Source: Eledone cirrhosa | Lineage: Eukaryota | Direction: 5' to 3' | Length of the DNA: 64,000 nucleotides | NCBI GenBank assembly: GCA_964016885.1 | Contig: OZ024740.1 | Location: forward strand, 281,604,001-281,668,000 | In this document: positions 38,006 to 43,968 of the stretch, piece after piece | Position numbering within the stretch: the stretch's first letter is position 1 | Layout of the letters: every line of letters starts with the position of its first letter | Position numbers and translations under genes: made by a program | Notes under the pieces: generated by a model | Told to the model about the DNA's origin: nothing | Database searches by the model: none | Seen by the model: the letters and a program-made list of their open reading frames with translations, nothing else

Positions 38006-39190
38006 TCGGCTGAAATTAGCGACCTTGTGGGCCTGTACATCCTACATAACCTGAAGAACCTCTTTACCGGCCTAACTGGAGGTTTATACCGAGACGACGG
38101 CCTCTTCGCCCTGCATAAGGTTAGCCCCAGAACCACCGATGGGTTTCGGAAAAACTTAAGCTCTTTCTTCTCTAATCTAGGATTTAGTATAACTATAGAT
38201 TCTAATTTGACTAGGGCCAACTTCTTAGATGTCACTCTCGACCTAGATACTTCCCTCTATTACCCGTACCACAAACCTAACGAGTCCCTTAAATATATTA
38301 ATGTTAATTCAAACCACCCCCAAAACATTACTGATAACCTAGTAAAAAGCGTCTCTATTAGAATATCTGGCCTCTCCGCCAACAAAGATATTTTTAATGC
38401 ATCTGCCTCCTACTACAATGACGCCCTAGCCCGTAGCGGATTTAAAGATAAGATAACTTACCTAGAAACCACCGCAAAATTGCAGAGGAGGAATAGACAT
38501 AGGCAGATTAGCTGGTACAACCCTCCCTTCAATAGAGAGGTATCTACTCCGATAGCTAGGATTTTCTTCACTTTACTGAAATTACACTTCCCCATACAAC
38601 ATAGGTACTACACCATCTTTAATAAGAACACTATAAGACTGTCTTACTCCACCACACCTAACCTAGCTAGGAATATAGCCAACCACAACTCTAAACTAAA
38701 TAAGCCAACCACCTCCGAAACCAATCCCCGGACTGGGGCTCTATGTAATTGCCTAAATAAGGAAGCATGCCCACTAGAAAACAAATGCCTCACAAATGAC
38801 ATCGTATACAAATGCGATGTCATCTCGGGCACCGAGGATTGCAAAAAAACTTACATCGGCATGACCTCCAACACCTTTAAGACCCGCTGGTTTGCCCATA
38901 CCCACTCCTTCAGAAGACCGGATAAATCAAATCAAACAACACTCGCCTCCTACGTTTGGGACCTCAAAAGGAACTCCACCCCCTTCACGCTTAATTGGAA
39001 AATACTCCAGAAAGCGCGCTCTTACAACGGAGGACACAAGGGCTGCGACCTTTGTATCTCAGAGAGCTACGAAATTTTATTCGCCAAGGGCCCGCTACTG
39101 AACAAACTCTCTGAACACTGCCCGAACTGCATGCACAAGAACTTTGCAACATTCAAACACTTTAAGCCAGTGTTAAAGCCCGATGGCTAA
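38006..39190 (+). CDS. PLE ORF C-terminal half: RT (YRDD, FLDV, thumb) + GIY-YIG endonuclease
   Basis: Open frame with [38 protein letters not shown] and CDLC. Confidence 0.9.
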
Positions 39191-39369
39191 AAACGACCTC
39201 CCCCTATTGGCCCCTATACCTCCTCCCCACCCTACCCCCACCCCTCCTCAACCTGAAATACGGCCACTATGGTCATGTGAGTACCTCTTTCGTATCTACT
39301 TTTTCTGCCTGTAGAGGTGTCTTTATGTGCCTGTGTATATGCGTATATTTATTGAGTACCTATTTACTT

Positions 39370-42240
39370 GTATGTGTATATATTTGTTTGTATATGTGTA
39401 TATGTGTATGTGTTGTGTGTATATATATATATATATATATATATATATATATATATATATATATATATATATATATATATATATATATATATATATGTAT
39501 ATATATATGTTTGCGTGTATATGTGTTTTATGTGTGTATATTTATGTAGGTATATGTATGTATGTGTTTGTGTATATGTATGTATGTATGTATGTGTGTA
39601 TATATATATATGTATATGTGTGTATATATATATGTATGTATATATATATATATATATATGTATATATATGTATATATATATGTGTATATATATGTGTATA
39701 TGTTTATGTATATGTATGTGTATATATATATGTTTGTGTGTATATGTGTTTTATGTGTGTATATTTATGTATGTATATGTATGTATGTGTTTGTGTATAT
39801 GTATGTATGTGTATATATATATATATATATATATATATATGTGTGTATGTATGTGTATGTATGTATGTATGTATGTATGTATACGTGTGTATGTGTGTGT
39901 GTATGTTTATGTATATGTATGTGTATGTGTGTATGTATGTATGTGTGTGTATATGTGTGTATATATATGTGTGTATATGTATGTGTGTGTATATATATAT
40001 ATATATATATATATATATGTGTATATATATATGTATGTGTGTACATGTATATATGTATATGTGTATGCATGTGTATGTATGTATGTGTGTATGTATGTAT
40101 GTGTGTATATATATATATATATATATATATATATATATATATGTATGTATATATATATGTATATGTGTGTGTATGTGTGTATATGTATATATGTATATGT
40201 ATGTGTGTGTGTGTATGTATGTATGTATGTGTGTGCGTGTGTGTGTGTGTGTATATATATATATATATATGTATATATATGTGTATATATATATATATAT
40301 ATATATATATATATATATATATATGTATATGTGTATATATGTATATATATATATGTATATGATAGTGTGGGCAGGTGTGTGTGTATATATAAATATATAT
40401 ATATGTGTATATATATATATATATATATATATATATATATATATATATATATATGCATATGTATATATATGTATATATATGTGTATGTGTGTGTATTTGT
40501 ATGTATATAAGTATATGCGTGTATGTGTGTGTGTGTATATGTATGTATATGAACGTGAGTATATATATATATATGTATGTGTGTATGTGTGTGTATATGT
40601 ATATATATATATATATATGTGTGTGCATATATATATATATATATATATATATATATGTATATATATATATGTATATGTATGTGTATGTGTGTGTGTGTGT
40701 ATATGTGTATATATATATATATATATGTATATGTATGTGTATGTGTGTGTGTGTGTATATGTGTATATATATATATATATATATATGTATACGCATATAT
40801 ATATATATATATATATGTGTATGTATGTGTATGTGTGTGTGTATATATATATATATATATATATATATATATGTGTGTGTGTGTGCGTATGTGTGTATAT
40901 GTGTGTGTGTATATATATATGTATATATGTATGTGTTTGTGTGTATGTATATGTATATATGTGTGTATGTGTGTGTATTTGTGAGTGTATATGTACATAT
41001 ATGTGTGTATGTGTATGTATGTATGTATGTATATATATGTATATGTATATGTATATGCAAATGTATATATATATGTATATATATGTATATATATATATAT
41101 ATATATATGTGTATGTGTATGTATGTATGTATATGTATGTGTGTGTGTATATATACATATATATATATATATGTGCATGAGAGAGAGAGTGTGTGTGTGT
41201 ATATATATTTTGTGTGTGGGTGTGTGTATGTGTGTATGCGCGTGTGTGTGTGTATATATATATATATATATGTGTGTGTGTATGTATGTATATGTATGTA
41301 TATATATATATATATATATATATATATATATATATATATATATATATATATATATATATATATATATATATATATATATATATATATGTGTGTGTGTATG
41401 TATATATATATGTGTGTGTATATGTGCGTTATATGTCTGTATATATATATGTATATTTATGTATAGGTCTGTGTATGTATGTGTATGTTTGTGTATGTAT
41501 GGATATATATATATATATATATATATATATATGTATTTGTATGTGTGTGTATAGAGATATATATATATATATATATATATATATATATGTATATATATAT
41601 ATATATATATATATATATATATATATATATGTGTATATATATGTGTATGTATATATATATATATGTATATATATATATATATGTGTGTGTATGTGTGTGT
41701 GTATAGATATTTATACATATGTATACTCGTGTTTGTATGTATGCGTGTGAGTGTATTTATTTGTGTATATATGTGTGTGTGTGTGTATGTATGTGTATGT
41801 GTGTGTGCATCTGTGTGTGTATATATATATATATATATATATATATATATTTGTATATATATATATATATATATATATGTATATATATATGTATATATGT
41901 GTGTGTGTGTGTATGTGTGTATATATATATATATATATGTATATATATATATATATATATATATATATATATATATATGTGCGTATGTATATGTGTATAT
42001 GTATTATATATGTATGTATGTATGTATGTGTGTATGTATGTGTGTGTACATGAATATATATTTGTATATATTTATATATTTTTTATATATGTGTGTGTGT
42101 TTTTATGTGTGTATATGTGTTTGTGTGTGTGTTTATGGTTGCGCGTAAGTGTGTGAGTGAGTATGTGTGTTTTTTTGTTTTTTATGTGTGTTTTTTTTGT
42201 TTTTCTGTTTTTTTGTTTTTTTGGTTTTTTTGTTTTTTGT
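39370..42240. repeat. ~2.8-kb complex (TA)/(TG)/(TATG) microsatellite inside the PLE 3' UTR
   Basis: Direct; strand-asymmetric (G-rich, C-poor on +). Confidence 0.95.
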
Positions 42241-42668
42241 GAATGTGTCTGTTGATTTTGGCATATTGTTGATTAGTTTAAGAGAAGTTCGAAGATAATA
42301 GTAAGATATGCACTCAGTATTTTGAATCTGTCTGCAGAATTCCCTAGACCTTTGTCACTTAGTAGAACCTTAATGACTTTAGCTTTTAAAGAATCTCCCT
42401 TTTCTTTAATTCTATCGAGCATGACTGACCCCCCACTGATTTTATAGACATCTGTTAGCTTAAGAGAAACTTATTGACAAGGAATGGTATGCCATCCGGA
42501 ACCTGTTTATAGAATTCTGTCTGCCTTTGTTACTCTAAAAACATAAATAAATATAAATAAAAATTAACTATAGCTTTGTAGAATTAGCTTTTAATGAATT
42601 CCCTTTTCTATCAACCAATGACCTGCACCCATCCCACTCCCCACCCTCTCCTACCACTTGTAGAGACC

Positions 42669-42676
42669 TATAAATA
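42669..42676 (+). promoter_or_regulatory. Candidate TATA box in PLE pLTR
   Basis: TATAAATA starting 30 nt upstream of the hammerhead and ~210 nt upstream of the ATG. Confidence 0.4.
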
Positions 42677-42698
42677 CCATATTTATTTTTTGATACCC

Positions 42699-42749
42699 AG
42701 ATTCCTGATGATTTCTAATGAATGAAACAGTTCTAGTCCTGTAGAATCT
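42699..42749 (+). ncRNA. Type I hammerhead ribozyme in PLE pLTR
   Basis: AGATTC-CTGATGA-tTTCtaatGAAt-GAAA-CAGttctagtcCTG-TA-GAATCT with a GUA triplet; the relative at ~20900-20943 (-) keeps the helix II stem but changes the loop (TCAC). Confidence 0.8.
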
Positions 42750-42879
42750 CATCTATATTAAAACTGTTATACTCTGCTATGTATTGAGTACCTTACTTAC
42801 TGTGGTTACCTCCGATTCAACCCGGAATAACGTACATTTTAGCACTCTCTGTGCCCCTTATAACCATCATCAAGAAACC

Positions 42880-43968
42880 ATGCTGACCAAACTCGACCTT
42901 GATATTTCCTTGAAGAACATCCCTATCCCTCCAAGGAAACTATACTTAAAAACACTCATCAGACGTACCGACGAGTTCATCAAGCGAATTAGATGGAGGG
43001 CCTTCTTCCTCGACAACCCTGATGTAGCATCTACCAATGATGAGAAGTTCGGCTTCAAAACGAATAAGACACCACCCACCAACAGCCTACTCCAACCATT
43101 TGAGGAAGACCTCTTCAAGATGATCAAGGATATTAAATTCCGTAGAGCCACCACACCATTCCAGGCCTACTTAAATGACGAATTACGGAATATAAAAAAA
43201 TCCCCTAATCTTTATGTCTCCTCCGATAAAACCAAAAACGTTTATGAGGTAGACCCACAGACCTACAATAAGCTGGCAAAAAATACCATCACGACCACCT
43301 ACAAAAAGGTAATAGAGAGGGCGCTGACTGAGACAAACGCGGCCGGAAAAGAAATCGCCAAGTCCCTTAAATTACATGACCGAACCGAACCTTTAAGGGT
43401 AAAGACCCCGCACTTTACCCTGAAGGACCATAAGGGAAATTTCCTCAACAAACCATCAGTCAGACTTATCAACCCCACTCGTTCTGACATCGGCTCTATC
43501 AGTAAGAAGATCCTGGATAGAGTTCTACCATTATTGCGGGCGGCCTCACCACTTCCACTCTGGAGTAGAACATCTGAGGCAATATCATGGTTCCAAGAAT
43601 TACCCGATAAACACCACACTCGCTTCCTGCAACTCGACATAGAAAACTACTATGCCTCTATCTCGGAGCCCCTCCTGAAGGACGCAATTAACTTTGCCAG
43701 GAATTTTACCACCATTACCGATGCCGAGCAAGTTATTATCCTCCACGCCCGTAAGACCTTTCTATACCACGATGGATCTTACTGGATCAACAAGAAATCT
43801 CAGACCCCATTTGACGTTAGCATGGGGGCGAGTGACTCGGCTGAAATTAGCGACCTTGTGGGCCTGTACATCCTACATAACCTGAAGAACCTCTTTACCG
43901 GCCTAACTGGAGGTTTATACAGAGACGACGGCCTCTTCGCCCTGCATAAGGTTAGCCCCAGAACCACC
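42880..43968 (+). CDS. PLE ORF N-terminal half (N-terminal domain and RT up to YRDD), cut at (TA)n
   Basis: ATG at 42880 (MLTKLDL..); SDKTK, LKDHK..VRLINP, LDIENYY, SMGASDSAE and YRDD; no stops. Confidence 0.9.

Follow-up and report, generated by a model that had tools for sequence, protein, structure and literature searches.

How does a complete retroelement come to lie in a genome with its open reading frame (ORF) split and the second half standing upstream of the first? This question is raised by positions 38006-43968 of a 64,000-nucleotide stretch of the genome of Eledone cirrhosa (GenBank assembly GCA_964016885.1, contig OZ024740.1, positions 281,604,001 to 281,668,000 of the forward strand; hereafter the window), which hold a Penelope-like element (PLE). 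A preliminary description of the window read this insertion as a circular permutation left by a reverse transcriptase (RT) that had run slightly more than once round a ribozyme-generated circular RNA, and took a 132-bp overshoot as the mark of that single lap. We conclude, with a probability of roughly 0.65, that the split copy is young and arose in one insertion, in which reverse transcription would have been primed off-site, inside the RT-coding part of the RNA, and would have copied more than one unit. The 132-bp figure is probably due to chance. The element itself is real and belongs to an ordinary family, and its mode of insertion is an uncommon one.

The letters of the window confirm the terminal redundancy: the first 132 bp of the insertion recur as its last 132 bp (38006-38137 and 43837-43968) with a single mismatch, where 38090 has C and 43921 has A; the sequences outside the two repeat copies are unlike from the first base on either side. 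Joining 42880-43968 to 38138-39190 restored, as had been described, a frame of 713 aa in which the sole stop is terminal; native, unpermuted copies carry an intact ORF of 711-714 aa at 25 of the 93 loci scanned (27 frames were listed, and two read-through frames, L115 and L130, were dropped). As placed, the permuted copy cannot encode the full protein and is dead. Its ORF 3' half (38006-39190) lacks a promoter and a start codon, and the pseudo-long terminal repeat (pLTR) could drive only a truncated product of 369 aa. Recombination between the repeats might excise a DNA circle with the whole ORF, as might any more-than-unit copy. The copy carries 4 private substitutions in ~3025 columns, and the nearest copies of both ORF halves, at 0.3-0.5%, belong to the same young subfamily for each half. 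At the right junction the element is followed by 21 bp of TA and then by an old repeat, and it shares no microhomology with this flank. The CA/CT tract at the left junction matched the element too poorly, as judged by eye, to be an inverted arm, and the rest of the ORF was not found in the 20 kb downstream.

It is very improbable that the arrangement is an assembly artefact, in which a repeat loop was resolved as a permuted unit. Circularly permuted PLE contigs of a rotifer were taken as likely assembly collapse in the account given in PMC3846280, and no independent read confirmed the junction studied here. Further, two pairs of copies on the same strand, one at C1 108 Mb and one at C4 178 Mb, were considered as permuted copies and turned out to be DNA-level or assembly duplications; in the first (C1:108.47-108.48 Mb, L161 and L162), 5.9 kb is repeated on the two sides of an N run with 0 differences, probably as an assembly artefact. 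The window contains no N, and the permuted copy lies between unlike flanks in a 443-Mb contig of the 3.0-Gb genome. The A at 43921 is private to the downstream repeat copy and so separates the two repeat copies; when the first 60 loci were compared, the 57 other matches all had C. In addition, five other permuted insertions were found.

To describe copies on a common scale, we used unit coordinates (u), in which u1 is 42140, the ATG is u741, 38006 is u1698, 43968 is u1829 and the stop is u2882. The unit runs from the pLTR through the ORF, 200 bp of 3' untranslated region (UTR) and an internal microsatellite of 0.9 to more than 3 kb to the next pLTR. The repeat period of the permuted copy is indeed 5831 bp, of which ~2.8 kb is the internal TA/TG microsatellite; since the length of the latter varies among copies, this value is specific to the copy and does not hold as a unit length for the family. 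The possibility that two separate insertions flank a host microsatellite was rejected, because every full copy carries the microsatellite. The family is young. Exact 25-mer counts climb toward the 3' end (74 at u769, 161 at u1722 and 633 at u2816), and two pLTR 28-mers had 1512 and 1973 exact matches.

The motifs of the predicted protein assign the element to the endonuclease-containing PLEs, with a single ORF for RT and a putative C-terminal GIY-YIG-like endonuclease, and the hallmarks of this group are present: a pLTR, partial tandems, an inverted 5'-truncated arm and a tail at one end. The ORF 5' half matched 855 longer homologs, and 117 of the 120 listed were 640-760 aa in length. RWR, DKT, YRDD, CxCX5C, GIY-YIG-like, CxxC and CxH (CMH) motifs were recognised, each of which, DKG aside, occurred in 103-117 of these 117 homologs; the Y.G.[TCA] motif occurred in 107, and the motifs that mark the Hydra clade in 103-111. 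A Pfam search gave only weak hits in the ORF 3' half, including GIY-YIG at E 0.067, and no family match in the 5' half. By motifs, architecture and target, the element would fall into the Hydra clade as described by Craig et al. (2021; PMC8557442), of which Hydra-1_Obim is an example. It shares with the described clade the single ORF, the C-terminal endonuclease, RWR (of the RWK type), DKT, CxCX5C, CxxC and CxH, and also the hammerhead, partial tandems, inverted arm, one-end tail and (TA)n target; (TA)n adjoins nearly all of the normal ends mapped. Unlike the Hydra elements, which are generally <3 kb, the unit here reaches ~5-6 kb, because a 3' UTR microsatellite of 0.9-3+ kb adds to ~3.1 kb of other sequence; shortness is typical of the clade and not defining. 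Hydra-1_Obim is listed there at 2507 bp with no pLTR. Compared by description, further differences are the tail (69 nt here, 30-40 nt there) and the copies that end inside the ORF here. Assignment to Naiad/Chlamys, with an N-terminal endonuclease and no canonical hammerhead, was ruled out by the C-terminal position of the endonuclease and by the hammerhead motif.

The TATA-like box and hammerhead named in the preliminary description lie in the pLTR. TATAAATA begins at 42669, and the type I motif, with a perfect 6-bp stem I, CUGAUGA and GAAA, predicts a cut at u604/605. Thus a hammerhead is present as a motif, and its cleavage is a prediction from complementarity. Rfam at the gathering threshold had no match anywhere in the window, and the minimum free energy fold of 42680-42850 was without a hammerhead (z -1.87). 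In the four sequencing runs aligned to this region (see below), read joints stepping back 75-77 nt at 42685-42761 pointed to tandem, retrozyme-like hammerhead mini-units of related families, and the summed read depth over 42686-42827 was several hundred times that of the ORF.

We then asked where copies of the family end. The census comprised the 74 exact matches at the ORF start, representing 73 insertions including the permuted copy, all of which were mapped and curated by eye; allowing up to two mismatches gave 139 matches, of which about 40 lie outside these maps, and more permuted copies may exist. The pLTR was the end of 56/73 insertions. Fifty-four ended at either of two fixed sites, a short one (u613-626, 22 nt past the predicted cut) or a long one (u691-698, 91 nt past it), and the other two at u570 and u669. 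Thirteen had their end within the ORF, which abutted (TA)n immediately in 11 of them and did not in 2, and four had no assigned end (N runs or ambiguous). With 54/73 at two fixed sites, permutation points are not generally variable. The preliminary description had looked for support in many copies with variable points and lengths just over one unit, which is mostly not what the family shows (6/73 permuted); nor, given the 13 ORF-internal ends, do the remaining copies stop at the pLTR without exception, the finding that it had named as contrary to its view.

Where both ends of a two-armed insertion lay in the pLTR, one was short and the other long in 34/34 cases (15 and 19 by orientation; four with one pLTR behind a nested insertion), and four short two-armed copies among 30 further loci obeyed the same pairing. 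A 'tail at one end only' is already known for PLEs (PMC8557442; PMC3846280); the strict pairing quantifies it and fits two adjacent start sites. The solo pLTR copy at 20893-21044, whose end had been taken as that of the family, does end at GGAATAAC; the family, however, uses two fixed 3' ends. An apparent class of copies ending in the microsatellite mostly dissolved when eleven were followed, as the pLTR was found in nine. It had been pushed away behind multi-kb nested insertions in the internal microsatellite in L079, L088, L099, L106, L108, L113, L128 and L132; in L095 it ended off the fixed sites, and L081 and L091 were left without an assigned pLTR end.

The 11 TA-adjacent ORF ends lay at u805, 884, 1017, 1090, 1099, 1648, 1804, 1829, 2156, 2165 and 2543, and one inverted arm was also TA-ended in the ORF, at u2104. 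Among 20 further one-mismatch loci, TA adjoined the end at u805-807 in three, a fourth had an ORF-internal end not next to TA, and a search for the u805 junction gave four matches, one of them new and 85% identical. Thus u805-807 is the end of five independent insertions with unlike flanks (L127, L183, L184, L193 and L254). This site resembles the normal short end, with AAACT followed by TA, and is also the target of a jump twice in L101. Further, both arms of L123 end in the ORF, 61 nt apart, compared with 69 nt in the normal pair, and TA-ended ORF copies with a normal inverted arm had the long site in that arm in 4/4 cases (p ~0.04). A/C enrichment before the off-site ends was seen post hoc (p 0.005), and no hairpin signal was found after them (p 0.16).

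These ends might instead have been produced by deletion. For the permuted copy, an ordinary partial tandem from 38006 would later have lost ~4.8 kb at its 3' side, healed in the flanking TA, and the overlap would be a coincidence. Ordinary partial tandems with normal ends that begin in the ORF do exist (L061, L064, L065, L067, L073, L077 and L118), and L116 and L129 end in the ORF without a TA junction. However, the ORF contains ten TATA words, so that repeated use of one of them by deletion is unlikely, and the sharing of one ORF site by five independent copies makes off-site priming at insertion likelier than later deletion for the ORF-ended class. The twin ORF ends of L123 argue in the same direction. 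The internal microsatellite (2-3 kb) is the larger TA target, yet deletions from the ORF into it that spare the pLTR are few (L092, L118 and, in its upstream round, L073). Age does not set ORF-ended copies apart from normal ones (private substitutions 0.36% vs 0.34%, p 0.39), and the permuted copy in particular is very young and lacks microhomology at 43968. The remainder of the ORF was not found within 10 kb further on in L080, L087, L089, L103, L104, L123 or L133. We therefore regard deletion as unlikely for the permuted copy.

Six of the 73 insertions were permuted, with both termini in the ORF and the microsatellite and pLTR between them. Their overlaps were +132 bp in the copy at 38006-43968, +234 bp in L080 (whose microsatellite holds 1.9 kb of other DNA), +1578 bp in L087, -691 bp in L103, -1011 bp in L104 and -1702 bp in L133. 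Since the overlaps are scattered from +1578 to -1702, the value of 132 bp does not characterise the class. For a single copy, the probability of an overlap of 1-300 bp is 0.06-0.12; the probability of at least one in five unselected copies is 0.28, and of two in six 0.05. As just 2/6 exceed one unit by less than 300 bp, the overshoot does not stand as the mark of one lap. A one-lap rule is not shown by the six permuted copies, and three completed laps are too few to decide. Internal priming with copying of more than one unit, the other part of the earlier proposal, is supported by the ORF-internal (TA)n ends (11/73) and the recurrent end at u805-807.

A precisely permuted unit between short direct repeats would also be expected if a unit-length DNA circle, released from a tandem, had entered a pre-existing 132-bp fragment by homologous recombination. 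This requires a solo mid-RT fragment of 132 bp cut on both sides, and it fails for the sub-unit permuted copies L103, L104 and L133 and for the TA junction typical of the enzyme. We consider it the least credible of the explanations, below even an assembly artefact.

The sequence that would have been copied provides some information on the template. Arms running from the ORF start into the upstream microsatellite were found in 30/73 insertions, with a seamless boundary (L079 was included, raising the count from 29, because both its pLTRs begin at u168), and 13 arms reached the upstream ORF, up to ~1.7 units. Rounds inside one insertion are close and often have private variants in common; those of L118 showed 0 differences in 995 columns, compared with 3 to the nearest other copy. 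Paired microsatellites of one insertion were more alike than any outside pair in 4/5 cases, with one tie. The seamless crossing fits a circular template. In contrast, nine of ~73 arms at risk stop at u606-624, within 19 nt just past the predicted cut (three of these were called at u628 by script and extended by eye to ~u619-624, and TATAT at u615-619 may attract junctions). More broadly, u520-769 held 29 of the 5' ends where 12 were expected, about twice the density of the ORF (p 3e-5, against a rough background of exact-match counts). In L131 (3635-3860), the element runs to u796 and is followed by 19 A's and then the pLTR from ~u514, a join left by a template jump to a short RNA with a poly(A) tail. 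In L097 the jump goes from u508 to u1169. In L101 (3541-4071), a 264-bp segment (u545-805) with the hammerhead was read 1.8 times, with jumps from u545 to u805 twice, reflecting a small circle or repeated end-to-end jumps. These jumps indicate that RT is able to hop between RNA ends, which can mimic a circle; linear RNA would account for both the pile-up past the cut and the end-to-end jumps, of which one passes through poly(A). Homologous strand transfer, tandem read-through and a circle are indistinguishable from genome sequence alone.

A circular template is thus possible for the permuted copy. The special case of our reading in which a ribozyme-generated, unit-length RNA circle was primed internally and RT stopped on completing the lap nevertheless seems to us a tentative proposal. 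The seamless arms, with their matching rounds and microsatellites, and the overshoots of +132 and +234 accord with it, and the positions of the normal sites past the cut suit a circle or uncut RNA. Against it stand the overlaps of the other four permuted copies, the nine 5' ends past the predicted cut, as would be expected with cut linear RNA, the poly(A) join and end-to-end jumps, and the report that ribozyme mutants of an anole PLE still insert in vitro (PMC11167929). Rolling-circle copying leads one to expect variable permutation points, which were not seen, although fixed priming on a circle would still be possible, and seamless more-than-unit copies from one template, which were seen, but of which circles are not the sole source. 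The wider scheme, in which the element moves via a ribozyme-made RNA circle of 5-6 kb copied by a dimeric RT that is primed at two sites, one per end of the DNA break, and tends to stall on return to its own start, we regard as slightly more doubtful still. If it is true, the +132 copy and L080 (+234) would be the first genomic footprints of a one-lap rule, with the stall moved off the pLTR by the off-site start.

We propose the following course for off-site priming. The enzyme likely cut a (TA)n run, the target seen in the family and at the junction of the permuted copy. Normal priming would use two fixed sites, one per end of the break, as the paired ends suggest, and about 1 insertion in 7 would be primed inside the ORF instead. 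In the permuted copy, the priming point is likely 43968. From there, RT likely crossed the ORF start, the pLTR, and then the 3' UTR and ORF end, leaving the scarless structure observed, and synthesis would have stopped at 38006, probably at random, 132 nt past its own start. The template may have been a ribozyme-made circle or, somewhat more probably, linear RNA copied by strand transfer or tandem read-through.

Several observations weigh against this reading. The end of the permuted copy is unique in the assembly (1 match), so its origin is deduced from its class, and the age comparison of that class rests on 11 ORF-ended copies only. TA microhomology of 2-4 nt occurs at 5/12 TA-ended ORF junctions, as repair-mediated deletion also gives. 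DNA-level rearrangement in TA runs does occur in the family, in the 12-unit array described below. Among the three permuted copies that completed a lap, two stopped <250 bp beyond it, and normal copies have about twice the expected number of 5' ends around the one-unit mark, an effect not separable from that of the nearby RNA 5' end; the stop may therefore not be random. Finally, no read or contig spanned the junction in the four sequencing runs aligned over 42260-44360, in which every sequence continued normally at 43968 and had C at 43921; these runs are collapsed contigs and reduced-representation reads, probably from other individuals, and are evidence neither way on the junction.

The array at C1:83.68-83.69 Mb (L231 and L169) closes a truncated copy on its 3' side and consists of twelve head-to-tail units of pLTR and ~430-500 bp of microsatellite, with a period of ~1.08 kb. 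A star-like rolling-circle product was rejected for it, as variants are common to subsets of units; those shared by units 7/10/12 and 5/8/12 suggest expansion at the DNA level. The features of the permuted copy and the other repeats noticed in the window are listed in Table 1.

Table 1. Positions of the permuted element, its junctions and other repeats in the window
Feature	Positions	Strand	Remarks
CA/CT microsatellite, left junction	37850..38005	.	inverted arm not recognisable
Repeat copy 1, 5' end of insertion	38006..38137	+	RT residues 320-363, including YRDD
ORF 3' half, residues 320-713	38006..39190	+	RT end, CxCX5C linker, GIY-YIG-like endonuclease, stop
3' UTR, unique part	39191..39390	+	common to family copies
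Internal TA/TG microsatellite	39391..42200	+	belongs to the unit; length differs among copies
pLTR	42200..42834	+	TATA-like box 42669-42676; fixed family ends 42765 (short) and 42834 (long)
Type I hammerhead motif	42699..42749	+	helices by complementarity; predicted cut after 42743
ORF 5' half from ATG	42880..43968	+	in place 369 aa, runs into TA flank, without endonuclease
Repeat copy 2, 3' end of insertion, putative off-site priming point	43837..43968	+	private A at 43921
(TA)n run, 3' junction	43969..43989	.	usual target of the element family
Old repeat	43990..44190	.	68-73% to three other loci; its TA tail is the apparent landing site
Short two-armed pLTR insertion, sister subfamily	20893..21044	+	94% identity; inverted short-end and forward long-end arm, in (TA)n
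Relic of another, related PLE family	16061..17602	-	50% amino-acid identity, residues 197-713
Tandem duplication, 1142 bp (98%)	45549..47827		overlaps long minus-strand frames 45717-48950
Direct repeat, ~3.1-3.6 kb (90-95%)	51049..54619 and 56885..60678		long open frames
Inverted piece related to this direct repeat	10594..11616		
SINE-like repeat, ~190 bp	2581..2771, 19954..20144, 25472..25662, others		many copies

A circle model of PLE replication is in print as a hypothesis, in which ribozyme cleavage, ligation and more-than-unit reverse transcription explain the tandems (Cervera and de la Pena, 2014, PMC4209133; PMC6765202). This is the same mechanism as that of the preliminary description, and the passages of these papers that set out the model offer no permuted genomic copies. 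In the mostly open-access literature searched, we found no account of ORF-primed permuted PLE insertions, and PMC13282606 contributed nothing further. The Poseidon element PAc of Anolis carolinensis (Frangieh et al., 2024; PMC11167929) resembles the present family in that two adjacent internal RT starts define the tail. As reported there, both DNA strands are cut and extended, the target is AT-rich, a weak product is likely primed off the RNA 3' end, and ribozyme cutting is not needed in vitro. Unlike the present element, PAc belongs to another clade and starts inside the ORF by default, whereas the normal sites here lie upstream of the ATG and ends inside the ORF are the minority. Animal non-LTR retrozymes (PMC7229834; bioRxiv 10.64898/2026.07.22.740005) have in common with our element a type I hammerhead, tandems and a proposed PLE-driven mobilisation, and for these small elements circles have been shown. 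They are described as non-coding, with units of 150-450 bp, in contrast to the autonomous, protein-coding partner found here.

How PLEs regenerate the upstream pLTR, and whether a hammerhead-made circular template serves in this, are questions that have stood since the model of 2014. Normal copies cannot distinguish the two models, since in them no more than 150 nt separates the one-unit mark from the RNA 5' end. Copies primed off-site set these marks more than 1 kb apart: a one-lap circle predicts stops just past the start of the copy itself, whereas with linear RNA they are expected at the transcription start or the ribozyme cut. Both kinds of stop are present in the family, in small numbers. 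With its many intact young ORFs, the 34/34 pairing and a recurrent cryptic start, the family is therefore a good substrate for an in vitro test.

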